Shown here: positions 16,751-64,000 of the stretch, in pieces
Layout of the letters: each line of letters opens with the position of its first letter
Numbering within the stretch: position 1 is the stretch's first letter
Source of the DNA: Massalongia carnosa
Lineage: Eukaryota
Length of the DNA stretch: 64,000 nt
Direction: 5' to 3'
Assembly (NCBI GenBank): GCA_965645245.1
Contig: OZ287076.1
Location: 2,046,001 to 2,110,000, forward strand
The notes under the pieces: generated by a model
Databases searched by the model: none
Seen by the model: only the letters and a program-made list of their open reading frames with translations
Told to the model about the DNA's origin: nothing
Position numbers and translations under genes: made by a program

Positions 16751-16884
16751 GAAGGTAGGCTAGCTTTTCAGCTACCCCGTCTCATTGGATAAAAGGACCA
16801 ATGGACATGCACAATGGAGGTTTCATTTGTCACCACTTTCTTTTTAGTTAAAAGGGAGTCCATCAGCTACTTTCGGAGTGGGAG

Positions 16885-30004: not shown

Positions 30005-30048
30005 TACCTGGCATCGGTTGCTCGTTTTAACACATTTCTTGCCAATAT

Positions 30049-30836
30049 GACACAGGTACAGGGTCTTGCCGCAGCACGCTCGAGGGTCACTCGGACTGGG
30101 TCGGCGCTGTAGCCTTCTCGCCGGACGGCCAGCTGATAGCGTCTGCCTCGCGCGACAACACGATCCGGCTCTGGGACGCAGGTAGAGGGTCTTGCCGCAA
30201 CACGCTCGAGGGTCACTCGTACTGGGTCAACGCTGTAGCCTTCTCGCCGGACGGCCAGCTGATAGCGTCTGCCTCGCGCGACAGCACGATCCGGCTCTGG
30301 GACGCAGGTACAGGGTCTTGCCGCAGCACGCTCGAGGGTCACTCGAGCTGGATCAGCGCTGTAGCCTTCTCACCGGACGGCCAGCTGATAGCGTCTGCCT
30401 CGGGCGACAGCACGATCCGGCTCTGGGACGCAGGTACAGGGTCTTGCCGCAGCACGCTCGAGGGTCACTCGGAGGGGGTCAACGCTGTAGCCTTCTCGCG
30501 AGACGGCCAGCTGATAGCGTCTGTCTCGGCCGACTACAAGATCCGGCTCTGGGACACAGGTACAGGGTCTTGCCGCAGCACGCTCGAGGGTCATTCGAAA
30601 TGTATCAACGCTGTAGCCTTCTCGCCGGACGGCCAGCTGATAGCGTCTGCCTCGGACGACAACACGATCCGGCTCTGGGACGCAGGTACAGGGTCTTGCC
30701 GCAGCACGCTCAAGGGTCACTCGAGGTGGATCAGCGCTGTAGCCTTCTCGCCGGACGGCCAGCTGATAGCGTCTGCCTCGTACGACAACACGATCCGGCT
30801 CTGGGAAGCAGGTACAGGGTCTTGCCGCAGCACGCT
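30049..30836 (+). repeat. 126-bp WD40 tandem array, about 6.25 units
   Basis: Exact 126-bp periodicity, about 67% GC, with variation concentrated at a few codons. Confidence 0.97.
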
Positions 30837-31164
30837 TTTGATTGATAAAATAATTAGCACTCTATTCTTTTCTCCAGATGGTTTACAACTAAAGACGGAT
30901 AGAGGGCATATCTTCATTCCTTTATCTCTCTATAGTGCTCCTTTCCGTCAGAAAAAAGAGCTATGTTCTGTCTTTGCTGAAGATCAATGGATAGCTTTTA
31001 AAGAACAACGTTTTCTTTGGCTTCCATCCGACTATCGACCGATATGTTCAGCTATTTACGGGAACTTTATCTGCTTGGGACATGCATCCGATCATCTTAC
31101 CTTTCTCGAGTTTAATTTTGAAAGTATACCTTCACATAAAGAACCTGCACAGAGCTTTATTTAA
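30049..31164 (+). pseudogene. 5'-truncated NWD/HNWD (HET-E-like) NLR gene: six WD40 repeats plus C-terminal tail
   Basis: The true frame, mostly missing from the ORF track, is open from 30049 to 31164: (TGSCRSTLEGHSxxVxAVAFSPDGQLIASASxDxTIRLWDAG)6, then ...LKTDRG...QWI...LWLPSDYRP...LGHAS. No start codon or NACHT domain is upstream. Confidence 0.88.
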
Positions 31165-31630
31165 CTTTAAATTTAGAGTTTGTTTTAAAGATCTCGTGAA
31201 CTCCTATGTTAGAACTAGTCCTAGCGATTAATAAGAATATCATTCAATAAATCATGTGTTAATATATCTTAGTGTTTCTTTATAAACTCTATTGTAGATA
31301 GAGGTTTGTGGGATCTTAGATATTTATATTGAAAGAGGCGTGCTTCTAGTCTCTTCTAGATGTTTCGTTATGGGGCTCTAAAACCTATACTTATAGCGGG
31401 TTCGGGATTCACATTTTCCGGAGAGACCTTGGCGGTGGTCAGGTGAAAGTCTCTCCTTTATATATAAAATTATGCAATCATATAAATGTTAAATATGTGA
31501 GTTTTTACAAGAATTTTTATCTTTAAGAATATTACAAATCTCATTTAAGTTGATGTGAATGAATTATTTAAAAAAAATAACTAATTAAACACATCAAAAA
31601 ATGTTGAATGTTCAACTTCTACCAACAAAA
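30837..31630 (+). repeat. Inverted segmental duplication arm (WD40 tail plus 3' flank), homologous to about 62538-63253
   Basis: The tail and about 430 bp of AT-rich 3' flank match the reverse complement of 62538-63253 at roughly 90% by eye, with one indel of about 70 bp at 31123-31196. Confidence 0.92.
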
Positions 31631-32127
31631 TGTCAGGCGATTAATGGTTTCATGACCCCCATGGGTCACATGACCCACGAACCCCTATTAGTTATATCCC
31701 TTAGTTACCTAGCCTAGAGCTCCCACATATCAATACACACCACTCCTTTTCACCCATATTCCACATTAGCCCATACAGCTTGATAGTTATGAGCCCGGTG
31801 AGCATAAAAGCTTTAAATTCCTACTCATTGATCTAGTTGAATAAAACCCCCTTCCCAAAACGATCGGACAAAACTATCAAAATGGAGGAGACCAACAAAG
31901 CAACGATGATCGCCCTAACTATTGGTGTCGAGACTTGATCACCTTGGTGCATGATACGAATATTTGCAAAGGATAGTTCATTTGTTTACTATCTGCAGAC
32001 ATTTTACCAAAACTCCAAAATGCACGCTAGGCCTAAACGGGCAGTCACCAACTGCCTGACACATTCTGGTTTGGCCTCCTAGCCCAAACACCAACACTCC
32101 CACTCAGGCATGGTGTCTGCCTGACGG

Positions 32128-32231
32128 TTGATGCTATTCATCTTCGTCGTTTCCAATTTGGTATCTCTGTCTTTTCAATTTGATGCTATTCATCTTCGTC
32201 GTTTCCAATTTGGTGTCTCTGTCTTTTCAAT
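32128..32231. repeat. About 52-bp tandem duplication in the Copia C 3' region
   Basis: ttgatgctattcatcttcgtcgtttccaatttggtRtctctgtcttttcaat occurs twice. Confidence 0.85.
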
Positions 32232-35200
32232 CTGATTACCTCATGCCCATCATGGTCCTGAAGACCTTGAACTTCTGTGGAGGTAAAGGTTTCGTCATTC
32301 CATAAGCTATCATCTCATTGGTTGAGATGACTATCTTTCTGCTCAGCACTACATCTCTTATCTAGTGATGCCGTACGTCGATGAGCTTTGTCCGCTTATG
32401 AAACTCTGGGTTAGCGGTAAGGTCAATCTCCCCCTTGTTTTCTGCTCGGAGGTCTGCTGGTTGGTCAGGTCGTCTGTGCCCGAGGGCCTCGAGGAAGCGA
32501 GAGCAACAGAAGGCCTCCTTCCCTGCTTCAGTGATCGCCATATACTCAGCTTCGCATGAAGACAGAGCGACGGTCGGTTGTTGTTTTGATTGGTGAGAAA
32601 TTGGACAACCCGAAAGCATCCAAACGTACCGACCGGTCGACTTTCTTCCATCTACGGTCCCCGCCCCATCAGAGTCAGTGTATCCGATTAGTTCATCCGG
32701 AGAGTCAGCCGAAAATTTCAGTCCTATGGTCAGTGTTCCTGCTATATAGCGGAAGATTTGTTTGATCAGTTGAATGTGGATGGGTCCGGGGTTGCTGCAC
32801 TAGCGGCTGAGGACTCCCACAGAATAAGAGATGTCTGGTTGAGTATGGGCTGCTGGCCACATCAGTGACCCGATTGCTGACTGATACCAGGAAATGGTGG
32901 CCCTGTCCGCCACCTGTCTTGATGGTAAAAGGGATCTTGCCACTCCCGGGTCCATTGGAATGCAGGATGGTTTACAGTCGGTCATTCCAAAACGTCCCAG
33001 GACCTTCTTCAAATAGGTCGTTTGTCGAATAGTTGTGGATTTTCCAACGTCCACATCCACATCCATTCCGAGGTAGTGGGAAACGTCGCCCAGGTCAGTC
33101 ATTTTGAATCGGTCAGAAAGCTGCTTTTGTATGAACTCGAGATGGGATATGTCAGCCCCAAAGAGTAGCAGATCATCCACATATATCGCTATGTATTGCT
33201 TTCTGTCATTTGAAACAAACACTCCATGATCAAGTTCCAGTCGATGAAATCCTAGCTTCTTTAGGAAATCAACAAGGGTCTGATACCACACCTGGGGGGA
33301 TTGTTTCAGTCCATAAAGTGCTTTGATAAGCTTACAGACCAGGTGCAGGTTGGTAATGAATAGATGAGGTTGTTCAACATAGATCAACTCGTTGAGGTAG
33401 CCATAAAGAAAGGCAGTCACAACATCCATATGACGTATAATAAACCATCGTTTGACCCCAACACCCATCATTGCTTTGTATGACATCGGTTTGACAACTG
33501 CAGCAAAGGTGTCGACGTAGTCCAAGCCTTCTTCTTGCTTATAGCCATGGACCACCCACCTTGCCTTATATTTCAGTATATTTCCGTGTCGGTCTTTCTT
33601 CAATTTAAACACCCACCTGCCGGTGATTACCCGACGGTCCTTTGGTGCTTCGGTCAGCTCCCACGTACCATTCTCGGTGTGAGATGCAATTTCAGTCTGC
33701 ATTGCTATCAACCATTTGGGCCAATCAGGTCTGGCCATAGCTTCTTTGAGCGAAAAGGGTTCATCTGGCCCTTCCGTGTTAATGTTATTGGCTAGCATTG
33801 TCAATGCTTTCATCATATGAATGTGGGATTTAGCCACGTTTGTATCAGTAAAATATGACCTTCCCCCTGAATGATTTGGGTCAAAAGCGTTGCCTTTATT
33901 ATCAACAATTTGTTTTCTTCAGTCCGTTTCGGTATTTTACCAAAACCATACATAATTTCATCAGGATAATTCGTACATTTGACGGGTGCTCGTTTGGATC
34001 TTCTAATGGAACATGGTCAGATGAGATGGTGGAAGAATTATGATCTTCCTGAGCGTCATGGTCGGTGTCAAGGGTCACTTCGCTGTGACTATCATAAAGA
34101 CTATCATAATTGTCTTTGGCATTCCTCCCCCTTCTGGCCGTGTTTGTTGGGAAGCTCCCACAGGATTTTGGTCTGAATGTCCTGTGTTTGAAGGACTATT
34201 TGGGGGTCTAGGAAGTTGAGATTTGTTGAATCAAGATTGGGTGTATGGATCGTCCTTCTCGTCGTCGTCATAGTCGTCTGGATTTCCAAATAGATCATCG
34301 TCCGTCTGGGTCCACTCGTCGTCAACAAGCTCATTCGGATTGAAGGCCTTTCGGTCAAAGAGGTTCTTTTCGTCAATAGTTACGTCTCTTGTAACATGAA
34401 CCTTTCCGGTGCAGGGGTCATATATCCTGTACTGATTTGTGCCTTCATAGCCCACATGGAGCCTTGCCAGGACCGTTCATCTAGCTTCCTTCTCTTTTCC
34501 TTGGGAATATGAACCCAAGCACGCGCACCCAACACCCTCAAATGACTGAGGTTGGGCTTTTTGTCATTGAGCTTCTGGTATGGTGTCACTCCGTCCGTGT
34601 TGGGACTTCTGTTTTTGAGATAACACACTGCTTTGATAATTTCAGGCCATAGGCCCTTCGGTAATTTCATTGCTGATAAGATGGACAGAACTGAGCTCAT
34701 AAGGGTATAATTCAGTCGTTCGGCCTTTCCATTTTGTTCAGGTATGTATGGGGCAATACATTTCCATTTGATGTGATGTTTCTTAAGATAGTCCTGAAAG
34801 TCTCCATTGTCATATTCACCTCCCCCATCCGTATGGAGTGCTCCCATCTGCATGCCAGTTTCCTGAGACGCCCATTCAATATATTCCTTTGCCTTCTCAA
34901 AGGCCTGACTCTTCAGTTTCATCGGATAAACATGGTACGTTCCAGTGGCATCATCTTTGAAAGATATGTAATACTGTAATCCGTTTCGAGAGGCCGGGTA
35001 TGGACCTCCCAAATCACTATGGACCTCTTCCAGAAATTTTGAAGCCCGAGGCATGGGAGTTCGTGACAGCTTTCGTTGCTGTCTACCCTTTATGCAGGGC
35101 CCACAAATTTCCTCCGGGGCAGGTCCTTTCACGTCAATTCCTTCAGCTATTTGTGGAAGTTTGAGGACGTTTCGATAACCAAGATGGCCCATTCTTCGGT

Positions 35201-37676: not shown

Positions 37677-37787
37677 TAAATTCACGTGTAGGTATAATAG
37701 CATGATTGTCATTGAAGGTGATTATCTATGTGGGCTACTTGTCTGCTTTATATAGCAGTCACAAAATAGGCACATCTAGGAGCCTAA

Positions 37788-41937: not shown

Positions 41938-43422
41938 ATATGTATGGGTTTTTCCATTGAATGATCATAAGGATAAGACCCTATTGCCCATCTTCAAAAG
42001 CTTGATCAATCAATGCGATAGGGCTGGCATTTCCATTAATTCAATGGTAACCACGATTCGCACGGGGCAAGAAACATCAATAGGAAAAGCCCTAGAAGCA
42101 TGGATCAGTCAGCAAGGCATAGAATGGTCATGGTCAGCAAAGAATACCCCTGAGCAAAATGGCGTTTCGGAGCGTTTCGGAGCCCTATTAACTGAAAAAG
42201 CTCGATGCACCAGGGAATATGCAAAAATACCAGAAGACCTGTATCCGGAGTGCTATTTAGCTGCAGCCCATCTGATGAATCGAACCCCCAATAAAGCTCT
42301 AGAATGGGACTCCCCATTAGTCAAATTGCAGAAACTGACCAATCCGGGCCAATCAGTCAGATACGAGCTGGCTCATCTAAAAGTGTTTGGTTGCAAGGCG
42401 TATCCATTGCTAAAAGGGGCCGATGCTCCTCCCAAAAGCAATAAGTTGAAATCTAGGACATTTGTTGGCTATTTGGTTGGCTATGATTCAACCAATATCT
42501 TCAGGATATGGAATCCAGAAAAGGGAGATGTCAGCGGTTATAGAGAAGTCATATTCAACGAAGATGAGCTTTATAGCGCCTATACGTCGAATAAGGAGCT
42601 GTTGCTAAAGGAGACTGAAAAAGCGAGCTTTATAGAGTTTCATGTATACGAACCACACCCCGCATTTCAGGAGATAGATAGTGAGGAAGAAGAATGGCTA
42701 GACCTATCAGTCAATAAGCGTATAGAGCAATTGACCATAGAAGATAACTCACCTAGTCAGGACGAAATATAGGAGAAAATAACTCCCTCATCAACGCCCA
42801 TGCAACTGGAAACGCCGATAGAAACATCTGAACCAGATATCAGCCCTAATGTCTCCATAGATAAAAGAAGGGCCAAAAAGGTGAGGGCATCAAAAATTGA
42901 CCCTCCACAACTCCCGCAAACAGGCCGAACGCCCCTCAATGTGACGGAAATAGAGCAATTATCAGGAAAAAGGAGCGATGGGATAAATGAGGCAAACGTT
43001 ATAGAGGGAAAACGTACTAGGAAACCAAACCCTAGATACGCTGCAAATGGAGCTTGGTCAGCAGAAGAAATGTCGAAATTCCCTCAATTTCATACAGCGT
43101 TTATGGCGGGGACGGCGAGAATGACTAATCAGCTCCGAACTGATGATTTGCCCGACCCCCCATCTCATTGGCGAGCTCTGCTAAGGCATCCCTATGCAGA
43201 TGAGTTCATGAAAGCAGCTAACGTTGAATGGGAGGCAATTTTCCATAAAGAAACATGGGAAATAGTTGATCAAGATGAGGCTATATAGCCAATATTGCCC
43301 CTCAAATGGGTTTTCACCTATAAGACTGATTCGGACGGCTATTTGGCAAAGTTCAAAGCACGTCTAGTGGTTAGAGGTGAGCTACAGCAAGATAATGCTC
43401 AAGATGTTTATGCAGCTACCCA

Positions 43423-43581
43423 GGTGTCTCGGATGATCTACATTTCCAATAAAAATCCGGAAATGTGACATTCACTTTGATGTTTCGGATGATCTACATT
43501 TCCAATAAAAAACCGGGAATGTGACATCCAGATGTCTCGGATGATCTACGTTCCCAACAAAAAACCGGGAATGTGACATCC
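43423..43581 (+). repeat. Three remaining hairpin-forming 50-bp units of the E1 5' UTR array
   Basis: Same units as 47722-48044 (units 4-6). Confidence 0.9.
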
Positions 43582-46500
43582 ATTGGGATGAAACGAAATC
43601 TCCCTGCCATCGATTTTGCCCTCTATTCATAGTCAGCATCTGCGTATCAGTTATAAGACTGCAGGATTATGGCTTCGAGCAACAAAAAACGATCTCGATT
43701 TATCAATCCCAAAATCACAACTAAACGCCTCAAATCTATCTTTGCATCTGCATCTGCTTCTGCATTTAGATCTATTATATCAATCACTGCCCCATTGCTA
43801 CGTGGCACTTTTGCCGAGATCCAATAACTCTCAGAGCCTCAACCAAATAATAGGCCGGCAACAAGGCTTGAACGAGATTCTCAACATACATTACAGGCGG
43901 CTAGTGCGGCAATCGTTGCTTTTCTCTTAGAGGATAACTCAGATTAATCAAAATTGGATTGCTTTGTACCATCATCCCTGAGCCTCCAGTCACTCCCGGT
44001 CAGTCCACATCAAAATCGGACCTAGAACCGCCCAGCGACTGTGATCCTTTCGGTCTAAGAGCCAGAACCAAGCCACCAAGCACTTATAATAGCACTCCGT
44101 CGGAATCCGGTAAAACCAAACACCAGTTCAAGCCAGTCCATTAACAAGGACAATCCATCAAGCTCTTCCAATAAACCCTTTCCATCATGAGTGAAAAAAT
44201 CTCTGGGTCGGGGCCCTATAGCGCTATTGATAGGATTCCTAAGCTAGTGGACCACGAGGGTTATCCAGCATGGAAGCGAGCCATGCGGGATTGCCTCAAA
44301 ATGATAGATCTTTGGATCTATTGTGATAACACTCAAGCTGCACCACGCCCAAACGCTCCCAATGATGGCTTCAACAAATGGAAAAAGGGCCAAGATAAGG
44401 CCTGCACTGCTCTTCGATTAGCTTGTGAAGGAAATGCCTACACCGATATAGAAGACCATACTACTGCTTCCGTCGCCTGGGACCTGCTTGAGTCAAACTA
44501 TAAGCCTCGCGGTTCGGGATTCCTCAATGACACCTTCAGAAAACTAGACAACCTTATCCTATCGGATTGCAGCAGCCCTGCAGACTACGTTACCCAATTT
44601 CGCGCCACGGCCAATAAGCTTCGCACCTTCTCAAGCAAGCTAAGCCTGGACGAAAACTGGCTTATCTATCGTTTCCATACCAATTTAGGCTTCGAATACA
44701 ACAGCTATTTCCAACGATACGCTCAGGATCATGATCCTTTCAATGAAATGGGTGAATCCAAGCACACGTTAAGTCAGGCTATGCAGCATTTCCAAAACAC
44801 GGTGACCAACCCAAGCAAGTCCAGCGATAAGGCCGTAATCGCAATGGCAGCTGTTTCAAACGATCAAACCCAAGCAGGAGCACAATCCGGAACAGCCCAT
44901 TCTCGAATCATCACCAAGACCATCAAGTACTGCAACCACTGCCGAAAGGACTATCACGTAGAGAGCGAGTGTCGTGAAAAAAATCCACCCCTCGTTAACC
45001 AAGACTCACAGCGTAAGTCCAATAAGCGTCGTAGGAATTCCAAAAGTCAAGGTCAAAGTCAAAAGCCAACCGGAAATAATGACTCAACCAAAGGAGCCTT
45101 CTGCGCCTACATGGCCACCGCGGATATAACAAAAATATCTAAGCTCTGGATCTGTGACTCTGGAACTAGCCAACATATTACCCACGATCGCTCCATCTTC
45201 ACATCATTCAAGACATCCGATTGCCCACCAATTCAAGGTATTGGAGGAGTATTAATTCCCAAAGGAATAGGTAACGTAACGTCATGTTGCGGTGTGCCGG
45301 TAACGAGGGTCTTCGGGAGTTCCCTCTTTTCGATGTGTTATACGTTCCGGACGGAGGCCTAAATTTCATCTCCCAAGGACAATTACAACGAGATGGATGT
45401 CCCCTGAAGATTGTACCAGAGGGAATTGAAATCGGGAACTATGGTATCACCGCTCGCCGCCAGGACAACAATCTGTATATCCTGAAAATGTAGAACGTCT
45501 CTGAAGCCGCTCTCGCTCTCGCTGCAATTAATAGCGAGGCGATAAAAATGTGGCACGCTCGTTTAGGCCATCTTGGAAATCAAAACATACTCAAGCTCGC
45601 TGGCATGTCAAAAGGAATGGACCTCACCAAGCCCCCGCCCCAAGGCGCCTGTCCTCCGTGCGCCATCGCTCAGTCCCAAGTAGAACCACACCGGGCCCCC
45701 ATCCAACCAGGCAAGCACCCGCTGGACTTAATTCACAGCGATATCCAAGGACCTTTCCCAGAAGCCTTGAATGGCGCCAAATATATGGTGACCTTTCTTT
45801 GCGATTTCGATAAACGGTCCCACGTCACCTTACTGCGCGTCAAAAGCCGAGTCCTTCAAGCTTTTAAAAACTACAAGAAGCAAAATGAATATGGAGACAA
45901 ACGAATTAAGCGCTTGCGATCGGACTGTGGGGGTGAGTATGACTCCAAAGACTTCGAGAATTTCAGAAACAAGCATGGCATTCAGTGGGAACCTACCGTA
46001 CCGGGAAATCCACCCATGAACGGGACAGCCGAGCGCCTAGGTCAAACGCTTCACAAGTTAGCCAGCACCATGCGAGAAGGCGCTAAACTCGACATCAAAT
46101 ATTGGGCTGAGATGGTTCTCACAGCCAACTACCTAAGAAATCGACAACCAACTGCAGGACGCTCCATCACCCCCTACGATTCTCACACCGGCAGCCCACC
46201 AGATCTAGGACATCTAAGGATAATAGGACAGACTGGCTATGCGCAAAATTGCAAGCTCTCCACCGGATGGAAGAAATTTCAGGAACGAGCCACCAAATGT
46301 ACTTTAGTAGGATACGAAGGCGATCATATCTATCGAATGATAAATCCACGGGGCGCGGTCATGCGTTATTCCAATGTTCAGTGAATGGATAACAATCCCC
46401 CAACTCCTCCTTCCTTATCATTCTCTCAAACTAAAAGAGCCCTATTGGAATTTGCCGAGATACCTGAATATTTGCGACCGAGGTTCTTTTGCCTCCTGCT

Positions 46501-47721
46501 TACTAATTTCCAGATTAGGCAATCATATGCTATATGCGAAAAGCTTCAGATTTCGGCACGACTTCGGCAACTACGAGGAGGCAAAGGTATGCAGCAAAAA
46601 TGCTACATTTCGGAGGCAATTCAGCTGTTCATGATCACTGAGTGTCTCGGTGTCTCCGGTCAGCAACGAGGTGTATTTTGCCCAGCTGAAAAGGTTCAAA
46701 GGAAGCAGGTTCATGCATTTGATATAGGCCGAGATGGAGGCCCTCAAGCAGTATAAAGAGACGATGATTCCTCATGTAATTTAGCTATTCAGTCGTTCAG
46801 AATTCAGTTCAGCAGATAGCTAAATTTGGAGTATCTTCACTGGAAATACGGAGTACCTGCATCACGTTTGCCAAGCACTTCTCTTTGCCTATCCTTGATA
46901 GCCCTAGACCCTCTTCTCCTGCATCCCGCTGCCGTATGCCTGGTTGATTTTTTGTTCAACAGGTTATGAGCCCGGATAGCACTCTATTCAAATCCAGGAG
47001 TATTTATCACTAGATCTTTTATCTTAGGGGATATAGCCCGTGTGCTTGTTTGAACTCCTAGCTATCCATTTCGGCACTCGAATAGGACGACTCCTTCACC
47101 ACCAAAATGTCTGCCTCAGAAGACAGCCAAGATACCGGAGGTGCCATGAGGGCATCCACCACCCCCGAGGCAAGCAAGGCCTCCTCATCAAAGGACAAGG
47201 GCCTAGCGGCTATGACAGCCATTGATGGGGGATATAAAAGGGGTGCCGGTGTGAAAGTGTTAGAATGTACAAATCAGGTTACTTCATTTCAGCCGCACTC
47301 ACCTTCTACCGCACGAGTATGGCGCACGCTAATGGCTAGACGTATCGCTAGTCTAATACTAGCATACCGTACATTGTCTATAAATCTAGCTATTCCCACT
47401 ATATAGAACAACAGCAAGCGTTCTATCCTCTATCTACTATACTACCTTTTGATAGGTTATGAGCCCGGCCGCAGGGCGCCTCTTTACATGTGTTTGCTTG
47501 TCTTACTTTACCTACCCTAACACAAGCCTCCTTACCGTCGCAAACAATTACCGTCGCGAATAATCTCCTACAAAAAAATCCGACACAAATCGACACATAT
47601 GAAACAGTCGGCAGTGTTTGAGATGGCTAAGCACTACTATCGGGCGCCCGGCTTCTTCTTTGCCCCTTACTAAACGAACGCTAACAAATATTTTAACAGG
47701 CACCTCCTTGCACTTCGTTTC

Positions 47722-48044
47722 GATGTCTCGGATGATCTACATTCCCCACAAAAAACCGGGAATGTGACATCCAGATGTCTCGGATGATCTACGTTCCCAA
47801 TAAAAAACCGGGAATGTGACATCCACTTCACTTTGATGTCTCGGATGATCTACATTCCCAACAAAAAATCGGAAATGTGACATCCAGGTGTCTCGGATGA
47901 TCTACATTTCCAATAAAAAACCGGAAATGTGACATTCACTTCGATGTCTCGGATGATCTACATTCCCAACAAAAAACCGGGAATGTGACATCCAGATGTC
48001 TCGGATGATCTACGTTCCCAACAAAAAACCGGGAATGTGACATC
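47722..48044 (+). repeat. Six hairpin-forming 50-bp units in the E2 5' UTR
   Basis: Unit GATGTC-tcggatgatct-ACATTCCC-aacaaaaaacc-GGGAATGT-GACATC, separated by alternating short spacers. Confidence 0.92.
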
Positions 48045-48649
48045 CATTGGGATGAAACCAAATCTCCCTGTAATCGATTTTGCCCTCTATTCATAGTCAG
48101 CATCTGCGTATCAGTTATAAGACTGCAGGATTATGGCTTCGAGCAACAAAAAACGCTCTCGATTTATCAACCCCAAAGGCACAACTAAACGCCTCAAATC
48201 TATCTTTGCACCTGCATCTGCTTCTGCGTTTAGATCTATTATATCAATCACTGCCCCATTCCTACGTGGCACTCTTGCCGAGATCCAATGACTCTCAGAG
48301 CCTCAACCAAATAATAGGCCGGCAACAAGGCTTGAACGGGATTCACAACATACATTACAGGCGGCTAGTGCGGAAATCGTTGCTTTCTCTTAGAGGATAA
48401 CTCAGATCAATCAAAATTGGATTGCTTTGTACCATCATCCCTGAGCCTCCAGTCACTCCCGGTCAGTCCACATCAAAATCGGACCTAGAACCGCCCAGCG
48501 ACTGTGATCCTTTCGATCTAAGAGCCAGAACCAAGTCACCAAGCACTTATAATAGCACTCCGTCGGAATCCGGTAAAACCAAACACCAGTTCAAGCCAGT
48601 CCGTTAACAAGGACAATCCATTAAGCTCTTCCAATAAACCCTTTCCATC

Positions 48650-51600
48650 TTGAGTGAAAAAATCTCTGGATCGGGGTCCTATAGCGCTATTGATAGGATC
48701 CCTAAGCAAGTGGACCACGAGGGTTATCCAGCATGGAAGCGAGCCATGCGAGATTGCCTCAAAATGATAGATCTTTGGATCTATTGTGATAACACCGAAG
48801 CTGCACCACGCCCAAACGCTCCCAATGATGGCTTCAACAAATGGAAAAAGGGCCAAGATAAGGCCTGCACTGCTCTACGATTAGCTTGTGAAGGAAATGC
48901 CTACACCGATATAGAAGACCATACTACTGCTTCCGTCGCCTGGGACCTGCTTGAGTCAAACTATAAGCCTCGCGGTTCGGGATTCCTCAATGACACCTTT
49001 AGAAAATTAGACAACCTTATCCTATCGGATTGCAGCAGCCCTGCAGACTACGTTACCCAATTTCGCGCCACGGTGAATAAGCTTCGCACCTTCTCAAGCA
49101 AGCTAAGCCTGGACGAAAACTGGCTTATCTATCGCTTCCATACCAATTTAGGCTTCGAATACAACAGCTATTTCGAACGATACGCTCAGGATCATGATCC
49201 TTTCAATGAAATGGGTGAACCCAAGCACACGTTAAGTCAGGCTATGCAGCATTTCCAAAACACGGTGACCAACCCAAGCAAGTCCAGCGATAAGGCCGTA
49301 ATCGCAATGGCAGCTGTTTCAAACGCTCAAACCCAAGCAGGAGCTCAACCCGGAACAGCCCATTCTCGAATCATCACCAAGACCATCAAGTTCTGCAACC
49401 ACTGCCGAAAAGACTATCACGTAGAGAGCGAGTGTCGTGAAAAATATCCACACCTCGTTAACCAAGACTCACAGCGTAAGTCCAATAAGCGTCGTAGGAA
49501 TTCCAAAAGTCAAGGTCAAAGCCAAAAGCCAACCGGAAACAATGACTCAACCAAAGGAGCCTTCTGCGCCTACATGGCCACCGCAGATATAACCAAAATA
49601 TCTAAGCTCTGGATCTGTGACTCTGGAACTAGCCAACATATTACCCACGATCGCTCCATCTTCACCTCATTCAAGACATCCGATTGCCCTCCAATTCAAG
49701 GTATTGGAGGAGTATTAATTCCCAAAGGAATAGGTAACGTCATGTTGCGGTGTGCCGGTAACGAGGGTCTTCGGGAGTTCCCTCTTTTCGATGTGTTATA
49801 CGTTCCGGACGGAGGCCTAAATCTCATCTCCCAAGGACAATTACAACGAGATGGATGTCCCCTGAAGATTGTACCAGAGGGAATTGAAATCGGGAACTAT
49901 GGTATTATCGCTCGCCGCCAGGACAACAATCTGTATATCCTGAATATGTGGAACGTCTCTGAAGCCGCTCTCGCTCTTGCTGCAATTAATAGCGAGGCGA
50001 TAAAAATGTGGCACGCTCGTTTAGGCCATCTTGGAAATCAAAACATTCTCAAGCTCGCTGGCATGTCAAAAGGAATGGACCTCACCAAGCCCCCGCCCCA
50101 AGACGCCTGTCCTCCGTGCGCCATCGCTCAGTCCCAAGTAGAACCACACCGGGCCCCCATCCAACCAGGCAAGCACCCGCTGGACTTAATTCACAGTGAT
50201 GTCCAAGGACCTTTCCCAGAAGCCTTGAACGGCGCCAAATATATGGTGACCTTTCTTTGCGATTTCGATAAACGGTCCCACGTCACCTTACTGCGCGTCA
50301 AAAGCGGAGTCCTTCAAGCTTTTAAAAACTACAAGAAGCAAAATGAATATGGGGACAAACGAATTAAGCGCTTGCGATCGGACTGTGGGGGTGAGTATGA
50401 CTCCAAGGACTTCGAGAATTTCAGAAACGAGCATGGCATTCAGTGGGAACCTACCGTACCGGGAAATCCACCCATGAACGGGACAGCCGAGCGCCTAGGT
50501 CAAACGCTTCACAAGTTAGCCAGCACCATGCGAGAAGGCGCTAAACTAGACATCAAATATTGGGCTGAGATGGTTCTCACTGCCAACTACCTAAGAAATC
50601 GACAACCAACTGCGGGACGCTCCATCACCCCCTACGAGTCTCACACCGGCAGCCCACCAGAACTAGGACATCTAAGGATAATAGGACAGACTGGCTATGC
50701 GCAAAATCGCAAGCCCTCCACCGGATGGAAGAAATTTCAGGAACGAGCCACCAAATGTACTTTAGTAGGATACGAAGGCGATCACATCTATCGAATGATA
50801 AATCCACGGGGCGCGGTCATGCGTTATTCCAATGTTCAGTGGATAGATAACAACCCCCCAACTCCTCCTTCCTTATCATTCTCTCAAACTAAAAGAGCCC
50901 TACATGTTGGACAGTCAGGACCGCCCACAAGAAAGCAAAAAATTACCCATCATACGGACTCCCCTCATACGGACTTAGTCGACGCTCATGAATCCATAGA
51001 ATCAATTCCCACTGGACCTCTCCCATCAAACGCTGGAAAAGAGGCATTGGCAAACCAACTGCCCATTGAGCCTTGGTCCCAGGCAGATATTCTCTCTAAG
51101 CATCCAAAACTTCGTGCCCCCTCGCCTGACCCGCTTGCTCTTTTGGCTCTTCTTGCTCGAGCCAATGACCCGGAGCCATACGAGCCTAAAACCTATAAAC
51201 AGGCCGTAGATAGTCGGGAGGAAAAGGATTGGCGAAGGGCAATGCAGGAAGAAATTGACTCTATCAACGAAAATGATACCTGGATCCTCACCTCCCTGCC
51301 CCCGGACCGCAAAGCCCTGCGAGGCAAATGGGGTTATAAAATCAAACGAGGCCCGGCTGGCGAGATTCTTCGTTACAAGGCTCGATGGGTAGTCAGAGGC
51401 TTTGAGCAACGTGAAGGCATTGACTACAATGAGACTTTTGCTTCAGTAGTGAAGCCAATGAGCTATAAAGCCATCTTCGCTATCGCTGCAGCCAATGATT
51501 GGGAAATCCACCAAATGGACGTAAAAACAGCCTTCTTGTACGGAAGGGTGGACGAGGAAATCTACGTGGAGCAACCAACCGGTCTGGATGACGGGTCAAC

Positions 51601-52774
51601 GAGAGTTTGCAAGTTGAAGAAAGCTCTTTATGGCCTGAAACAGTCGTCTAGAATCTGGTATGAAACGATCACTACTTTTTTCAAGTCTCATGAATTCGTT
51701 CCAGTCAACGCCGACCTTAGCGTTTTCGTTAAAGAAGGGGTTATCGTAGCCATTTACGTCGATGATTTAATCATCACTGGCTCTTCTTCTTCCGAGATAC
51801 AACGTGTCAAGAAACTGCTGAGTGACGAGTTCTCGATGGTTGATTTAGGCCCTATCAATTACTACCTGGGCATGACGATAACTCGGGATCGGGCTAATAG
51901 GATTCTTCGCCTTGGTCAGCAGGCCTATCTGGAAAAAGTACTACGCGACCATGGCATGTGGGACACTAACCCCGTGGCTACCCCGATGGATGGGCGACTG
52001 GAGGCTGCACCAGAGGGCCATCAGGCCACAGATGACTCTCGCCTCCGCTACCAATCAGCGGTGGGCTCTCTCATGTATGCTATGCTAGGCACTAGGCCTG
52101 ACTTAGCCTACGCCGTATCGGTGGTCAGCCGCTATGCCTCGAACCCGACCGATACGCACTGGAAGGCAGTCAAACGCATCTTTCGATACATCAAGGGCAC
52201 TCTACCGTTGCAGTTAACATACAAAGGTCACTTACAACCCTTGAACGGTTACACTGACGCGGATTGGGCCGGAGATCATCATACCCGAAGGTCTACCTCA
52301 GGCTTCGTGTTTAATGTGGGTAGTGGCGCTATTAGCTGGTCTTCCAAACGACAACCGACCGTAGCCCTATCTTCATGCGAAGCCGAGTACATGGGTCAGA
52401 CTCAAGCCACCAAGGAAGCCGTCTGGCTGTCTAGTCTTCTCGACCAACTTTCAGCACCTCAAGTCCCTGGGATACACTCTCTCCAAACCCAGAGCACCTC
52501 TGTAGCCCTTGCCTGCTTGCCTACATCTTTCGCCCTAAATGCTATCATCATTCACTGCGACAATCAAGGAGCAATAGCTTTGGCCAAAAATCCCCAGGCA
52601 CACGCGCGGAGCAAGCATATTGACATCCAATGGCACTACCAAAGAGAGAAGATCGAAGACAAATCAGTGGAATTTCGCTATGTTCCTACCGAAGAACAGG
52701 TAGCTGACGGCCTAACCAAGGCCCTACCAAAGGACAAATTTGTTGTCTTTCGAAAAGCTTTAGGCTTAGAATAA
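48650..52774 (+). CDS. gag-pol: Copia E2 Gag-Pol polyprotein (1374 aa); first codon is TTG where E1 has ATG
   Basis: CNHCRKDYHVESEC, WICDSGTSQH, WHARLGH, IHSDVQG, LRSDCGGEY, NGTAER, QMDVKTAFL, YVDDLII, YTDADW, SSCEAEY and ADGLTKAL lie in one frame. Confidence 0.95.
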   Translation: MSEKISGSGSYSAIDRIPKQVDHEGYPAWKRAMRDCLKMIDLWIYCDNTEAAPRPNAPNDGFNKWKKGQDKACTALRLACEGNAYTDIEDHTTASVAWDLLESNYKPRGSGFLNDTFRKLDNLILSDCSSPADYVTQFRATVNKLRTFSSKLSLDENWLIYRFHTNLGFEYNSYFERYAQDHDPFNEMGEPKHTLSQAMQHFQNTVTNPSKSSDKAVIAMAAVSNAQTQAGAQPGTAHSRIITKTIKFCNHCRKDYHVESECREKYPHLVNQDSQRKSNKRRRNSKSQGQSQKPTGNNDSTKGAFCAYMATADITKISKLWICDSGTSQHITHDRSIFTSFKTSDCPPIQGIGGVLIPKGIGNVMLRCAGNEGLREFPLFDVLYVPDGGLNLISQGQLQRDGCPLKIVPEGIEIGNYGIIARRQDNNLYILNMWNVSEAALALAAINSEAIKMWHARLGHLGNQNILKLAGMSKGMDLTKPPPQDACPPCAIAQSQVEPHRAPIQPGKHPLDLIHSDVQGPFPEALNGAKYMVTFLCDFDKRSHVTLLRVKSGVLQAFKNYKKQNEYGDKRIKRLRSDCGGEYDSKDFENFRNEHGIQWEPTVPGNPPMNGTAERLGQTLHKLASTMREGAKLDIKYWAEMVLTANYLRNRQPTAGRSITPYESHTGSPPELGHLRIIGQTGYAQNRKPSTGWKKFQERATKCTLVGYEGDHIYRMINPRGAVMRYSNVQWIDNNPPTPPSLSFSQTKRALHVGQSGPPTRKQKITHHTDSPHTDLVDAHESIESIPTGPLPSNAGKEALANQLPIEPWSQADILSKHPKLRAPSPDPLALLALLARANDPEPYEPKTYKQAVDSREEKDWRRAMQEEIDSINENDTWILTSLPPDRKALRGKWGYKIKRGPAGEILRYKARWVVRGFEQREGIDYNETFASVVKPMSYKAIFAIAAANDWEIHQMDVKTAFLYGRVDEEIYVEQPTGLDDGSTRVCKLKKALYGLKQSSRIWYETITTFFKSHEFVPVNADLSVFVKEGVIVAIYVDDLIITGSSSSEIQRVKKLLSDEFSMVDLGPINYYLGMTITRDRANRILRLGQQAYLEKVLRDHGMWDTNPVATPMDGRLEAAPEGHQATDDSRLRYQSAVGSLMYAMLGTRPDLAYAVSVVSRYASNPTDTHWKAVKRIFRYIKGTLPLQLTYKGHLQPLNGYTDADWAGDHHTRRSTSGFVFNVGSGAISWSSKRQPTVALSSCEAEYMGQTQATKEAVWLSSLLDQLSAPQVPGIHSLQTQSTSVALACLPTSFALNAIIIHCDNQGAIALAKNPQAHARSKHIDIQWHYQREKIEDKSVEFRYVPTEEQVADGLTKALPKDKFVVFRKALGLE

Positions 52775-57150: not shown

Positions 57151-60036
57151 AGAGTTAGCGATAGTTTATCGCAACCACATCGGCCCACGAGGGCCCATGG
57201 CCTACCTGAGCATCGGGTTCAGATGGGCAAAACGCGGAGGATTTCTTTTAATCCGTTTTCGGGCATGCGAGGGTATGAAGCCATTCAGATACTCGGAGTG
57301 GGAGTATTGGAATTTGCCGAGATACCTGAATATTTGCGACCGAGGTTCTTTTGCCTCCTGCTTACTAATTTCCAGATTAGGCAATCATATGCTATATGCG
57401 AAAAGCTTCAGATTTCGGCACGACTTCGGCAACTACGAGGAGGCAAAGGTATGCAGCAAAAATGCTACATTTCGGAGGCAATTCAGCTGTTCATGATCAC
57501 TGAGTGTCTCGGTGTCTCCGGTCAGCAACGAGGTGTATTTTGCCCAGCTGAAAAGGTTCAAAGGAAGCAGGTTCATGCATTTGATATAGGCCGAGATGGA
57601 GGCCCTCAAGCAGTATAAAGAGACGATGATTCCTCATGTAATTTAGCTATTCAGTCGTTCAGAATTCAGTTCAGCAGATAGCTAAATTTGGAGTATCTTC
57701 ACTGGAAATACGGAGTACCTGCATCACGTTTGCCAAGCACTTCTCTTTGCCTATCCTTGATAGCCCTAGACCCTCTTCTCCTGCATCCCGCTGCCGTATG
57801 CCTGGTTGATTTTTTGTTCAACAAGCCCTACATGTTGGACAGTCAGGACCGCCCACAAAAAAGCAAAAAATTACCCATCATACGGACGCCCCTCATACGG
57901 ACTTAGTCGACGCTCATGAATCCATAGAATCAATTCCCACTTGACCTCTCCTATCAAACGCTGGACAAGAGGCATTGGCAAAGCAACGGCCCATTGAGCC
58001 TCGGTCCCAGGCAGATATTCTCTCTAAGCACCCAAAACTTCGTGCCCCCTCGCCTGACCCACTAGCTCTCTTGGCTCTTCTTGCTCGAGCCAATGACCCG
58101 GAGCCATACGAGCCTAAAACCTATAAACAGGCCGTAGACAGTCAGGAGGAAAGAATTGGCGAAGGGCAATGCAGGAAGAAATCGACTCTATCAACGAAAA
58201 TGATACCTGGATCCTCACCTCCCTGCCCCCGGACCGCAAAGCCCTGCGAGGCAAATGGGTTTATAAAATCAAACGAGGCCCGGCTGGCGAGATTCTTCGT
58301 TACAAGGCTCGATGGGTAGTCAGAGGCTTTGAGCAACGTGAAGGCATTGACTACAATGAGACTTTTGCTTCAGTAGTGAAGCCAATGAGCTATAAAGCCA
58401 TCTTCGCTATCGCTGCAGCCAATGACTGGGAAATTCACCAAATTGACATAAAAATAGCCTTCTTGTACAGAAGGGTGGACGAGGAAATCTACGTGGAGCA
58501 ACTAACCGGTCTGGATGACGGGTCAACGAGAGTTTGCAAGTTGAAGAAAGCTCTTTATGGCCTGAAACAGTCGTCTAGAATCTGGTATGAAACGATCACT
58601 ACTTTTTTCAAGTCTCATGAATTCGTTCCAGTCAACGCCGACCTTAGCGTTTTCGTTAAATAAGGGGTTATCGTAGCCATTTACGTCGATGATTTAATCA
58701 TCACTGGCCCTTCTTCTTCCGAGATACAACGTGTCAAGAAACTGCTGAGCGACGAGTTCTCGATGGTTGATTTAGGCCCTATCAATTATTACCTAGGCAT
58801 GACGATAACTCGGGATCGGGCTAATAGGATTCTTCGCCTTGGTCAGCTGGCCTATCTGGAAAAAGTACTACGGGACCATGGCATGTGGGACACTAACCCG
58901 TAGCTACCCCGATGGATGGGCGACTGGAGGCTGCACCAGAGGGCCATCAGGCCACAGATGACTCCCGCCTCCGCTACCAATCAGCGGTTGGCTCTCTCAT
59001 GTATGCTATGCTAGGCACCAGGCCTGACTTAGCCTACGCCGTATCGGTGGTCAGCCGCTATGCCTCGAACCCGACCGACACGCACTGGAAGGCAGTCAAA
59101 CGCATCTTTCGATACATCAAGGGCACTCTTCCGTTGCAGTTAACATACAAAGGTCACTTACAACCCTTGAACGGTTACACTGACGCGGATTGGGCCGGAG
59201 ATCATCATACCCGAAGGTCTACCTCTGGCTTCGTGTTTAATGTGGGTAGTGGCGCTATTAGCTGGTCTTCCAAACGACAACCGACCGTAGCCCTATCTTC
59301 ATGCGAAGCCGAGTACATGGGTCAGACTCAAGCCACCAAGGAATCCGTCTGGTTGTCTAGTTTTCTCGACCAACTTTCAGCACCTCAAGTCCCTGAGAAT
59401 CACTCTCTCCAAACCCAGAGCACCTCTGTAGCCCTTGCCTGCTTGCCTACATCTTTCGCCCTAAATGCTATCATCATTCACTACGAAAATCAAGGAGCAA
59501 TGGCTTTGGCCAAAAATCCCCAGGCACACGCGCAGAGCAAGCATATTGACATCCAATGGCACTACCAAAGAGAGAAGATCGAAGACGAATCAGTGGAATT
59601 TCGCTATGTTCCTACCGAAGAGCAGGTAGCTGACGGCCTAACCAAGGCCCTACCAAAGGACAAATTTGTTGTCTTTCGAAAGGCTTTAGGCTTAGAGTAA
59701 ACCAGAAGCCTTTTGTCGTAAAAAATCCGACCTTAACCCAAAAAAGAAAGTATCACCCACAGCTGAGCCTGTGGGGGTGTTTTCGTACATCGCTAGCAGC
59801 ATTAGCCTGCGGAGTACACTGACTCACCTGCAGGTGATCCACTGGGAAGCATGATATTATACTGGAGTATGTGGGAGTTATTGAATTTCTCTTTATCATG
59901 TGCGGGTGCTATTTCAGTGCCTGAGTGGGAGTGTTAGAATGTACAAATCAGGCTACTTCATTTCAGCCGCACTCTCCTTCTACCGCACGAGTATGGCGCA
60001 CACTAATGGCTAGACGTATCGCTAGTCTAATACTAG

Positions 60037-60575: not shown

Positions 60576-62949
60576 CTAGCATACCGTACATTATAAATCT
60601 AGCTATTCCCACTATATAGAACAAAGGCAAGCGTTCTATCCTCTATCTACTATACTGCCTTTTGATATTCGCATCCAGAAGAGAAAATATCATATTCCGG
60701 AAGCGGCTTTGATAAATTTTTGAAAGAAGTGATTTAGACTTCAAAGAGAGAGCGGAACTCGAATAACATGAAACGTTGAGTATTAATCTTAATAGCAGGA
60801 TGAAGCTGTTACCACAAATTCATGTCCACACGTCGGATTTTCGTGATCAGCTGCTGAATCAGCCAACCTCTCATTTACGTTAATGTTGTTTTTTGTGGTT
60901 TATTGACTGACGTCTAACCGCTATTCGGATATGGAGCTTTATTCGTTTCGAAATTTTTTATCAATACAACGTTAGTTGGCGCAATCTTAACTTTCAAAAA
61001 GAACCGTTATAAACTTACCAGACAAATTTCCTCCCATTTCTTCTCACGTTGTAGGGGTGGAGCGATGATCCAAATTCAAATTGCTAGTGGTTCGGGCGTT
61101 GGTTTGTCCGACTGAGGCATGGCAAGGTCGTGGGGAAGTCAGGTGACAGTCTTTCCTTTTAGATATAGATATTTCTTTTCCCTTAGACACAGAGCAAGCA
61201 TGCTCGCAGAATAGCATCAACACATACAATTCACAGGCACGAGGCACGAGGCGCGAGGCGCGAGGCATACAGTGACCAGTCTAGCTATTGTTCTCATTCT
61301 ATTGTCTTGTTCTTCTCTTATTTGTTTGTTCTATTGCACTCCTAACAGTAGTGGACCACGCACACCACCCAGTTCATCCTTCCACAACGTCTCGCAGGAG
61401 CGGGTAGCATCGCGCGGGAATTATCATGTGCAATTACAACATCCAGGACACGGAATACTGTTGAGGCAAGCAATAGCAAGAAGAAGGCCAAAAAAATAGA
61501 AATGGGTGAGTCAATCCTTTAGATAGCAAGCCTACTAAGATGCTAGAACTCTAGAGTAGCCAGCACCTAAGGGATCACGATGGCGGTGACAAATCTACTC
61601 GAGAGGCTTGATAGATCAACGCCATCAGCAGCTTATTCTATAACACAGCAAGGACTGATCGATCCGAAGGCGTATTAGGTATTCAGCAATAGCTGGCTAG
61701 AATTGATTGTTTGTTCATAATCGTAACCGTTCGCGCCGTCAAGCTTGCGGTTAGCAGAATGAACCAGGGATCTTATTTGCTTGCACGTTAAAGATGTAAC
61801 TTCAAGGGGCTGCATCAAAGAATGTGATCCGCCATTCGGTTGGGTGTAATCCATGTGAGGACTAAAATATGATAGTTAGCACTCGAGCTGCTTCCATGGA
61901 ATGGTCGAGGCAAACTCCGGAGAACGAGAATATGAAGATCGCTTAAGTGTTGTCGCTTGGCTTTCGCTCGAGGAGGAAGCTATACGGGCAGCAGTCAACT
62001 GTGCTCCCTGAAGCGGTCATTAATAATTTCTCCCGCTTCAATCTTTTACAGAATATCACTCGAACTCAACCCCCATGAAGACACAGCTGGCTTGCATGAG
62101 GAATTGCATTGTCTTCAAGGATCAATGCTACCAATGCAAATACAAAAGCTAGGGTTTAACAAACAATCCCTGCTCTTTCTTTCCTAAATTCGATCTTTCA
62201 AAGTAACGTAACCATCGTTCTCCCCTTCCGCGCCCTTTCTCACACTCCGATAACAGTTTTCGCTCTGAATCTCCATCTCAAGCCTTGCCTCCAGCCCACT
62301 CGACTTCTTTGCCGCATTTCGATAGCACCAACTTAGGCCCTTCACCCCAGCCATTGCTGACAGCATCAACCGCATGGATGGGAAACCTACGATGCGCCAT
62401 CTTTTTTTCGCCGTTTGCAGACCGAACACTTTCACCTCTCCAGAGTCCGGTAGCGTCAAATCGTCAGGGCGTTCGATATTGTAACGGTGTCCAAGAGCCT
62501 CCTGTAGTTAAGCCTAATTTGGTCCATCTACGATGCTTTGTTGGTAGGAGTTGAACATTCAACATTTTTTTGAAGTGTTTATTAGTTATTTTTTCAAAAT
62601 AATTTAATCAACTCAAATGCGATTTGTAATATTCTTAAAGATAGAAATTCTTGTAAAAACTCGCATGTTTAACATTTATGTGATTGCATAATTTTATATA
62701 TAAAGGAGAGACTTTCACCTGACCCCCGCCAAGGCCTCTCCGAAAAATGTGACTCCCGAACCCGCTATCAGTATAGGTTTTAGAGCCCCGTAACGAAACA
62801 TCTAGAAGATGCTAGAAGCACGCCTCTTTCAATATAAATATCTAAGGTCCCCCAAACCTCTCTCTGCAATAGAGATTATAAAGAGAACATTAAGATATAT
62901 TAACAGATGTATTATTGAATGATGTACTTAATAATCGCTTAGACTAGTT

Positions 62950-63999
62950 CTAACATAGGAGTTCGCCTTCAAAATTAAACTCGAGAAAGGTTAGATGACC
63001 GGATGCATGTCCCAAGCAGATAAAGTTCCCGTAAATAGCTGAACATATCGATCGATAGTCGGATGGAAGCCAAAGAAAACGTTGTTCTTTAAAAGCTATC
63101 CATTGATCTTCAACAAAGATAGAACATAGCTCTTTTTTCTGACGGAAAGGAGCACTATGGAGATATAAAGGAATGGAGATTTGCCCCCTATCCGTCTTTA
63201 ATTGTGAACCATCTGGAGAAAAGGATAGAGTGCTAATTATTTTTTCAGTCAAAAGCGTGCTGCGGCAAGACCCTGTACCTGCGTCCCAGAGCCGGATCGT
63301 GTTGTCCTCCGAGGCAGACGCTATCAGCTGGCCGTCCGGCGAGAAGGCTACAGCGTTGATCCAGCCCGAGTGACCCTCGAGCGTGCTGCGGCAAGACCCT
63401 GTACCTGCGTCCCAGAGCCGGATCGTGTTGTCGTCCGAGGCAGACGCTATCAGCTGGCCGTCCGGCGAGAAGGCTACAGCGCTGATCTCGTCCGAGTGAC
63501 CCTCGAGCGTGCTGCGGCAAGACCCTGTACCTGCGTCCCAGAGCCGGATCGTGTTGTCGTCCGAGGCAGACGCTATCAGCTGGCCGTCCGGCGAGAAGGC
63601 TACAGCGCTGATCTCGTCCGAGTGACCCTCGAGCGTGCTGCGGCAAGACCCTGTACCTGCGTCCCAGAGCCGGATCGTGTTGTCGCCCGAGGCAGACGCT
63701 ATCAGCTGGCCGTCCGGCGAGAAGGCTACAGCGTTGATCTCCGCCGAGTGACCCTCGAGCGTGCTGCGGCAAGACCCTGTACCTGCGTCCCAGAGCCGGA
63801 TCGTGTTGTCGCCCGAGGCAGACGCTATCAGCTGGCCGTCCGGCGAGAAGGCTACAGCGCTGACCCAGTCCGAGTGACCCTCGAGCGTGCTGCGGCAAGA
63901 CCCTGTACCTGCGTCCCAGAGCCGGATCGTGTTGTCGCCCGAGCCAGACGCTATCAGCTGGCCGTCCGGCGAGAAGGCTACAGCGCTGATCCATCTTGA
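62950..63999 (-). CDS. 3' end of an NWD/HNWD (HET-E-like) NLR gene: six WD40 repeats visible plus tail, running off the window
   Basis: Open frame 63999-62950: (TGSCRSTLEGHSxxIxAVAFSPDGQLIASASxDNTIRLWDAG)n, then TEKIISTLSFSPDGSQLKTDRG...LWLPSDYR...LGHASG. A NACHT domain is not visible in this window. Confidence 0.88.
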   Translation of the reverse strand, partial: SRWISAVAFSPDGQLIASGSGDNTIRLWDAGTGSCRSTLEGHSDWVSAVAFSPDGQLIASASGDNTIRLWDAGTGSCRSTLEGHSAEINAVAFSPDGQLIASASGDNTIRLWDAGTGSCRSTLEGHSDEISAVAFSPDGQLIASASDDNTIRLWDAGTGSCRSTLEGHSDEISAVAFSPDGQLIASASDDNTIRLWDAGTGSCRSTLEGHSGWINAVAFSPDGQLIASASEDNTIRLWDAGTGSCRSTLLTEKIISTLSFSPDGSQLKTDRGQISIPLYLHSAPFRQKKELCSIFVEDQWIAFKEQRFLWLPSDYRSICSAIYGNFICLGHASGHLTFLEFNFEGELLC

Positions 64000-64000
64000 G
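63254..64000 (-). repeat. 126-bp WD40 tandem array, about 6 units visible
   Basis: The framework is essentially invariant between units and two adjacent units are identical. Confidence 0.97.

Follow-up and report, generated by a model that had tools for sequence, protein, structure and literature searches.

The closest described counterparts of the locus considered here are three pseudogenes of Podospora anserina, NWDp-1, NWDp-2 and NWDp-3, which belong to the NACHT-WD40 (NWD) type of fungal NOD-like receptors (NLRs). According to the available excerpts of Paoletti et al. 2007 (PMC1805685), the flanks and the NACHT domains of these genes have been mutated by repeat-induced point mutation (RIP) while their WD repeats are intact, and the intact repeats were explained by concerted evolution with the active loci. 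NWDp-3 also lacks a start codon and has a transposon relic immediately upstream (PMC1805685). The idea that such pseudogenes could act as donor cassettes was published in the same paper, with an analogy to Plasmodium falciparum, where there is one expressed site and a set of silent loci (Paoletti et al. 2007, PMC1805685); two other papers restate the concerted evolution and the intact repeats of the NWD pseudogenes (PMC13449251, PMC12222747). Here we describe a similar arrangement in a stretch of 64,000 nucleotides (referred to as the window) from Massalongia carnosa, positions 2,046,001 to 2,110,000 of contig OZ287076.1 (assembly GCA_965645245.1), which is a transposon-rich part of a filamentous ascomycete genome. 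The window contains two inverted copies of the 3' end of a WD40-type NLR, a left copy (L) and a right copy (R). With a probability of about 0.68, we consider L to be a dead, 5'-truncated relic of an NWD-type fungal NLR that is bounded by transposons and whose repeat units were homogenised by the family after an old inverted duplication.

Many fungal NLRs have highly conserved repeats (PMC4986451). The genes het-e, het-d, het-r and nwd6/nwdp-2, as described in the excerpts of four papers (PMC12222747, PMC13449251, PMC2873952, PMC4986451), have units of 42 amino acids (126 nt) with near-identical frameworks, a few variable loop codons and identical units within arrays, and L and R resemble them in all of these features. 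The 126-nt period, at which matches reach 92% in L and 97% in R, places both arrays in the conserved-repeat class of NWD/HNWD (HET-NACHT-WD40) genes as that class is described in PMC4986451. A further possible parallel is the sharing of repeats between paralogs, one of them a pseudogene, for which there is evidence in the HNWD/NWD genes; unlike these genes, neither L nor R has a HET or NACHT part that is visible within the window. The resemblance to the Podospora pseudogenes is more specific (PMC1805685, again as far as the excerpts go). Like NWDp-1, NWDp-2 and NWDp-3, L is a non-functional member of the NACHT-WD40 family in which the repeats are open and consensus-like and the surroundings are more mutated, and like NWDp-3, it has no start codon and lies downstream of a transposon relic. 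However, NWDp-1 and NWDp-2 retain a RIP-riddled NACHT domain, whereas L has lost the domain altogether. The contrast between repeats and surroundings is also milder in L than in the Podospora pseudogenes, with 1.8% divergence in the repeats and 5-10% around them and without heavy RIP, and the host of L belongs to a different ascomycete lineage.

Two 126-bp tandem arrays were located in the window with Tandem Repeats Finder, at 30049-30836 (6.3 copies) and 63254-63993 (5.9 copies). The left array (30049..30836, plus strand; PF00400 WD40, E = 4.6e-89) consists of a 36-nt partial unit and six full units. It is followed by a tail of degenerate terminal blades that ends in a stop codon (30837..31164, plus strand), as delimited by alignment and by the C-termini of relatives, and then by a 465-nt 3' flank (31165..31629, plus strand) that is homologous to the flank of R by BLAST and alignment. 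On the minus strand, R has an array of five full units and one that is cut by the window end (63254..64000; alignment; WD40 match E = 3.8e-91), a tail with a stop codon (62950..63253) and the corresponding 3' flank (62537..62949). The R frame is open at 62950-63999 and continues past the window end at 64000, and the portion inside the window is 1,050 nt, none of which encodes NACHT. Self-BLAST indicates that the inverted duplication spans array, tail and 3' flank, with 94.6% identity between L 30097-31122 and R 63993-62968 and 90.8% between L 31198-31629 and R 62964-62537. The two copies (L 30049-31629, plus strand, and R 62537-64000, minus strand) are therefore arranged tail-to-tail with their stop codons 31.8 kb apart, which agrees with the distance of about 32 kb given in an earlier note on this DNA. 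The same note calls R an intact-looking NLR paralog, a description that the 1,050 nt inside the window are too little to bear out.

When all units are placed in one register, not one of the 126 unit columns has a fixed difference between L and R, and the units do not cluster by locus; strict clustering by locus is what the earlier note had named as evidence against exchange. In-register framework differences between L and R occur at 11 of 606 sites (1.8%), which is the dozen or so that had been estimated by eye. Variation is concentrated instead in codons 4-7, 23, 25 and 26, where 35 of 126 in-register sites differ (27.8%). The mean framework distance is 3.4% among L units, 2.1% between L and R units and 1.0% among R units. 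R1-R4 have no framework differences and R0 has two private changes, so that R units are almost pure consensus. L has 10 private framework substitutions compared to two in R, and its eleventh framework change also occurs in the orthologous last unit of R (R5). Of the 10 private substitutions, eight alter the amino acid and two are synonymous; four are CpG transitions, and one (in unit L4) replaces Pro with Arg in the conserved SPDG motif; this is a neutral-looking decay. Taken together, the pattern in the L units is, on the evidence of these alignments, one of star-like decay from a consensus that R still embodies. Units R3 and R4 (63380-63631), which are adjacent, are identical at all compared sites, and this suggests that a unit of the right array was duplicated very recently.

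In the propeller predicted by AlphaFold2, the variable codons are found within or next to the d-a loop and the b-c turn. The spacing of codons 5, 7, 23 and 25 equals that of positions 7, 9, 25 and 27 of Paoletti et al. 2007 (PMC1805685), assuming an offset in register; the excerpts of that paper describe these positions as variable and as loop positions on the top face of the propeller. Thus, as in NWD/HNWD genes, variation is found at top-face loop positions (27.8% versus 1.8% elsewhere), and the variable codons would form the ligand-binding face. Several hypervariable states of L, namely Y, S, E and K at codon 4 and R, A and Y at codon 23, are not seen in the visible units of R. The motifs RWIS, DWV and DDN, which the earlier note listed as shared between the loci, are indeed shared at the protein level. 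However, they do not stand as a mark of exchange between this particular pair: the Arg codon of RWIS is AGG in L6 and AGA in R0, the preceding Ser codon also differs, and W, I and S are consensus states, so that shared motifs of this kind are weak evidence of exchange. The sharing is also family-wide and not specific to the pair, as a third copy, described below, has states of both L and R.

Outside the arrays the two copies are more diverged. Between the tails there are 15 differences in 286 sites (5.2%), and exactly 10 of these are within the first 96 nt, as had been reported; the ratio of nonsynonymous to synonymous differences per site (pN/pS) is 1.09. The 3' flanks differ at 41 of 429 sites, or at 33 of 421 if one poorly aligned block is omitted (7.8-9.6%). 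The framework is thus less diverged than the tail (Fisher p = 0.009) and less diverged than the flank (p = 5e-6 to 2e-8). At 22 sites in tail and flank L has T or A where R has C or G, and the reverse is the case at eight sites; CpA to TpA changes number seven in L and none in R, counted without the polarity of a DNA outgroup. Heavy RIP was considered as the main cause of the flank divergence and rejected, given the mixed contexts in two pairs of Copia copies (80 and 61 differing sites, with mixed transition contexts) and borderline RIP indices.

The base composition changes along with the divergence. GC content is 0.64-0.65 in the arrays, 0.37-0.385 in the tails and 0.30-0.33 in the flanks, and GC at third codon positions (GC3) drops from 0.76-0.77 in the arrays to 0.29-0.31 in the tails within one open reading frame (ORF) in both copies (30049-31164 and 62950-64000). 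Such a break would fit long-standing GC-biased conversion in the arrays, AT-biased decay outside of them, or both. The GC3 break between array and tail is a simple compositional marker that could be used to screen genomes for arrays of this type.

The tail identifies the family. Its 98 amino acids have 1,500 protein matches at E of at most 1e-3 among 1.84 billion representatives, always at the C-terminus of the matching protein. In eight of 12 long tail-matching proteins that were scanned, NPHP3_N or NACHT_N is among the 25 best-listed Pfam families, and in the other four these 25 are just propeller families. Judging from these matches, the tail is a normal NLR C-terminus. When R was compared with longer proteins, the best of the 120 matches listed had 72% identity (Peltigera leucophlebia and Endocarpon pusillum, both lichen-forming fungi), in a ranking that follows repeat number and so may hide paralogs from the same genome. 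L compared with proteins of similar length gave a best identity of 73% and no near-identical protein among the 120 matches listed. The tail region of R compared with longer proteins gave 23 candidates, none of them significant, and the tail compared with metagenome contigs gave one weak locus (57% identity over 30 residues), which was not used.

A third close copy of the tail was found in a 189-amino-acid protein of ENA (P0001), which has two WD40 units and whose frame is shifted by one base against that of L and R after ...KEQRF. Its residues form a mosaic, some L-like and others R-like, with AEIN as in R2 and with K and Y states as in L units; of the 10 L/R differences among the first 60 tail residues, six have the R state in P0001 and four the L state. 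About 72 nt of L (~31123-31195) are missing in R, where the alignment places the junction at 62964-62968. This segment, which lies within the L tail region and encodes ...ESIPSHKE..., resembles the C-termini of two relatives, P0002 (ENIPSYRK) and P0003, and it is also missing in P0001, as implied by the reading frame of that protein. The loss of these 72 nt at the C-terminus thus appears to be derived and common to R and P0001, and L keeps the ancestral, family-typical end. L is not a recent copy of present-day R.

L itself is correctly described as headless, since it has no Met codon and no remnant of NACHT was found in the window. The Pfam scan of the whole window found no NACHT domain among the 36 ORFs of at least 150 amino acids, and tblastn with the first 620 residues of 12 relatives gave no match in the window at E of at most 1e-3; the NACHT domain that stands upstream of the repeats in NWD/HNWD-type NLRs is thus missing from L. 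The frame is open from stop to stop at 30031-31164 (377 codons), which bears out the 1.1 kb that had been reported. It had also been regarded as noteworthy that this frame is still open, but only 3.4% of the possible substitutions in it would create a stop, and the probability of no stop is 0.50, 0.35 or 0.25 for 20, 30 or 40 substitutions, so the open frame is not statistically remarkable. An AlphaFold2 single-sequence model of L predicts a beta-propeller for residues 1-280, with a confidence score (pLDDT) of 70-87, and gives no usable model for the tail, residues 281-377 (pLDDT below 50).

The left boundary of L is a truncated Copia long terminal repeat (LTR) on the minus strand, split by a DNA transposon. 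The first part of the LTR (27253..27466) is 89.7% and 91.4% identical by BLAST to the two LTRs of a Copia element elsewhere in the window (4983-5304 and 16884-17205), and its last 24 nt (30009..30032), ending ...TTTTAACA, are where the alignment of both reference LTRs resumes. Between them lies a 2.5-kb pogo/Fot-like element (27467..30008, plus strand) with 175-bp terminal inverted repeats (TIRs; 27467-27639 versus 30008-29834) that are 96.6% identical, a probable TA target duplication and a PF03184 DDE_1 match on the ORF at 28408-29406. Its transposase is spread over three overlapping frames, which suggests frameshifts or introns. When the pogo element is removed in silico, the truncated LTR rejoins (27253-27466 plus 30009-30032) and can be aligned with both LTRs of the Copia element at 4983-17205. 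The LTR is followed by 16 nt (30033..30048) that are unlike a WD unit and unlike LTR-internal sequence and mark the 5' breakpoint of L, and the first WD40 base of L, at 30049, is in the middle of a unit. On the other side, the homology between L and R ends at 31629, where high-copy repeat sequence starts, as a jump in depth at 31623-31823 in four of four sequencing runs indicates.

The surroundings of L and R consist of transposons. Twenty-two of the 36 ORFs have a Pfam family match, and with the exception of the two WD40 ORFs, all of these are to retroelement or DNA-transposon families (RVT_1, RVT_2, rve, gag, RNase H, Exo_endo_phos and DDE_1). The Copia element at 4983-17205 has an LTR pair that is 96.6% identical, and a LINE-like (long interspersed nuclear element) element with endonuclease, RVT_1 and RNase H domains (~6213-11826, minus strand) is nested in it. 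Retroelements, of the Copia type and others, fill much of the interval between L and R, and some of these insertions are very recent. For example, a 519-bp direct repeat (46443-46961 and 57305-57823) is 100% identical and probably represents the two LTRs of a nested Copia element that was inserted very recently; the Copia copies that flank it are 97.2% and 96.7% identical. An uninterrupted 1,378-amino-acid Copia gag-pol ORF (gag, Pol_BBD, integrase and RVT_2) at 48638-52774 suggests that this element is active. Two related Copia copies begin with 52-bp tandem repeats, at 43420-43582 (three copies) and 47722-48046 (six copies), and the number of repeats thus varies between the two. The description of the neighbours of L as heavily decayed does not hold, as several of these transposons have long open frames, the 1,378-amino-acid ORF among them, and one has the identical LTR pair. 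These two features, along with the mixed contexts in the Copia pairs, indicate that the neighbourhood of L is not strongly mutagenic.

Short Logan contigs from five sequencing runs, one of them labelled as a lichen metagenome, match part of the stretch; no RNA run is among those listed. Run X2 is a second sample from the same study as X1, and X1 may be the source of the assembly itself. Three L-specific contigs in X1 have no differences from the assembly: one within unit L4 (30444-30554), one that spans the 72-nt segment (31104-31281) and one at 31510-31623; in X2, the 178-nt contig at 31104-31281 is identical and a contig over 31482-31623 has two differences. The depth of L-specific contigs is ~505-655 in X1 (533.6 for 30444-30554) and ~167-169 in X2, and the summed word depth of the array bins is 27,698-101,668 in X1 and 2,715-12,973 in X2; taken as a rough guide, the ratio fits tens to more than 100 units in the genome, so that L and R would not be a closed pair. 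The depth of the pogo contig in X1 is ~10 times that of the single-copy L contigs, and in run X4 (organism B) a contig with the pogo end at 30006 continues into a different flank, which confirms the boundary of the element. At 97% likeness, coverage is absent or minimal for array and tail in X4 and for the tail in X5, and from this we draw no conclusion. Capture or transduction of the L fragment by a transposon was rejected, as depth is single-copy-like and no second copy of the L-specific structure was seen among these contigs.

We suggest the following history. L and R would descend from an old tail-to-tail inverted duplication, with ~8-10% non-coding divergence, and both arrays belong to a many-copy family of 126-nt units with high internal conservation. 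Unequal crossing-over and gene conversion, acting within arrays and now and then between loci, would keep the units similar, which is why the framework of L would be younger than its tail and flank. After the duplication, the units of L would have been overwritten by the family consensus, with L as the recipient. The contrast in divergence and the lack of fixed differences favour such post-duplication homogenisation of the L units by the family, as far as sequence comparison goes. The direction follows from two observations: none of the 10 L-private framework substitutions is found in the 5.9 visible units of R, and the distance within L exceeds that between L and R, which in turn exceeds that within R; therefore, any exchange ran into L. 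The proposal of the earlier note that repeats were exchanged after the duplication thus survives in part: the framework, at 1.8%, is well below the tail (5.2%) and the flank (7.8-9.6%) and has no fixed column, but the significance of this difference depends on the neutral rate that is assumed.

Several points weigh against this history. At half the flank rate, L should have acquired 25-31 private changes, compared to 11 counted (p = 0.001 to 2.5e-5), and at half the synonymous rate of the tail, which is based on three synonymous changes, it should have acquired 15.8, compared to the same 11 (p = 0.13), a count that includes the one state common to R5. A synonymous-only model expects 1.5-2.3 fixed differences, and zero has a probability of 0.10-0.23 under that model. 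The substitutions are polarised by the third copy P0001, which is a protein-level rather than a DNA outgroup, and the comparison at the DNA level covers the two copies L and R. Contig depth, from which the size of the family was gauged, is a rough guide and not a copy number, and among the matches listed no contig bridges the LTR/WD junction at 30033-30049. In addition, the repeat rearrangements recovered in Podospora experiments were intragenic, according to the excerpts of PMC2873952.

The alternative that survives best, although we consider it unlikely, is that the loci did not exchange repeats at all. L would have been part of a full-length functional paralog for most of the time since the duplication, its units kept consensus-like by purifying selection and by homogenisation within the array, and it would have lost its head recently in an event associated with transposons. 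The results of the synonymous-only model make zero fixed differences not improbable without exchange, and the private load of L is compatible with half the synonymous rate of the tail. The retention by L of an ancestral C-terminus that R has lost and the activity of transposons in this region, as seen in the identical LTR pair, also fit. However, the LTR at the breakpoint is ~9-10% diverged from its relatives and carries a pogo element whose TIRs are 3.4% diverged, and so, the head loss does not look recent, though this is not a strict date. The absence of a NACHT remnant within 30 kb upstream of L or elsewhere in the window, the tail pN/pS, which shows no sign of constraint, and the excess of GC to AT changes in the tail and flank of L all speak against this alternative as well.

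Bacteria, protozoa and birds have recombination systems in which silent copies feed an expressed gene, and the familiar ones are pilS/pilE of Neisseria, vls of Borrelia, the VSG genes of trypanosomes and the pseudo-V genes of the chicken immunoglobulin loci. These systems are defined by directional transfer from the cassette into the expression site. L is like them in that it is promoterless and truncated and lies close to a gene that may be expressed and that has modular variable segments. Unlike them, it is one cassette rather than an array, and directional transfer was looked for in L and R and was not seen. The earlier note had cast L as a silent reservoir that donates specificity-bearing WD40 units to an expressed R, which would take place by intrachromosomal conversion or flip-flop inversion, and we find this improbable. 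L has neither promoter nor start codon and is open nevertheless, its inverted orientation would permit exchange without loss of the interval, no difference between the arrays is fixed, and some of its hypervariable states at codons 4 and 23 are unseen in the visible units of R. However, no cassette-derived segment was found in the 5.9 visible units of R, in which, as noted above, all 10 L-private substitutions are missing. The most marked unit, L4, is on a contig of single-copy depth in X1 (30444-30554), and so its variants are present once in that data set, with depth again as a rough guide. The framework changes of L are mostly amino-acid-changing and look like decay, and RWIS is not encoded by the same codons in L and R.

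A related and still less probable idea is that the inverted arrays are a recombination-based cassette switch, in which R could swap its distal units and tail with those of L by occasional conversion or crossover, and a crossover would flip the 31-kb interval without losing it. If true, this would be a fungal case of recombination-based switching of immune-receptor specificity. Finally, we give next to no credence to L or its junctions being an assembly artefact of collapsed or misjoined reads: the region is repeat-dense and the junction at 30033-30049 is unbridged among the matches listed, but the contigs of X1 and X2 described above reproduce L exactly or with two differences, there are no joints or loose ends at its boundaries among the matches listed, and L has its own substitutions throughout.

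These results open no new mechanism. The idea of a donor cassette was published earlier, and L and R lend it no support. Among 8 of 116 papers listed on lichens and NLRs, none treats the subject in lichen fungi. What L does provide is an extension of the Podospora pattern, that is, dead NLR paralogs with fresh WD40 repeats in decaying surroundings, to a distant and probably lichen-associated ascomycete. This extension supports the view that fungal NLRs with highly conserved repeats generally have their repeats homogenised between loci.

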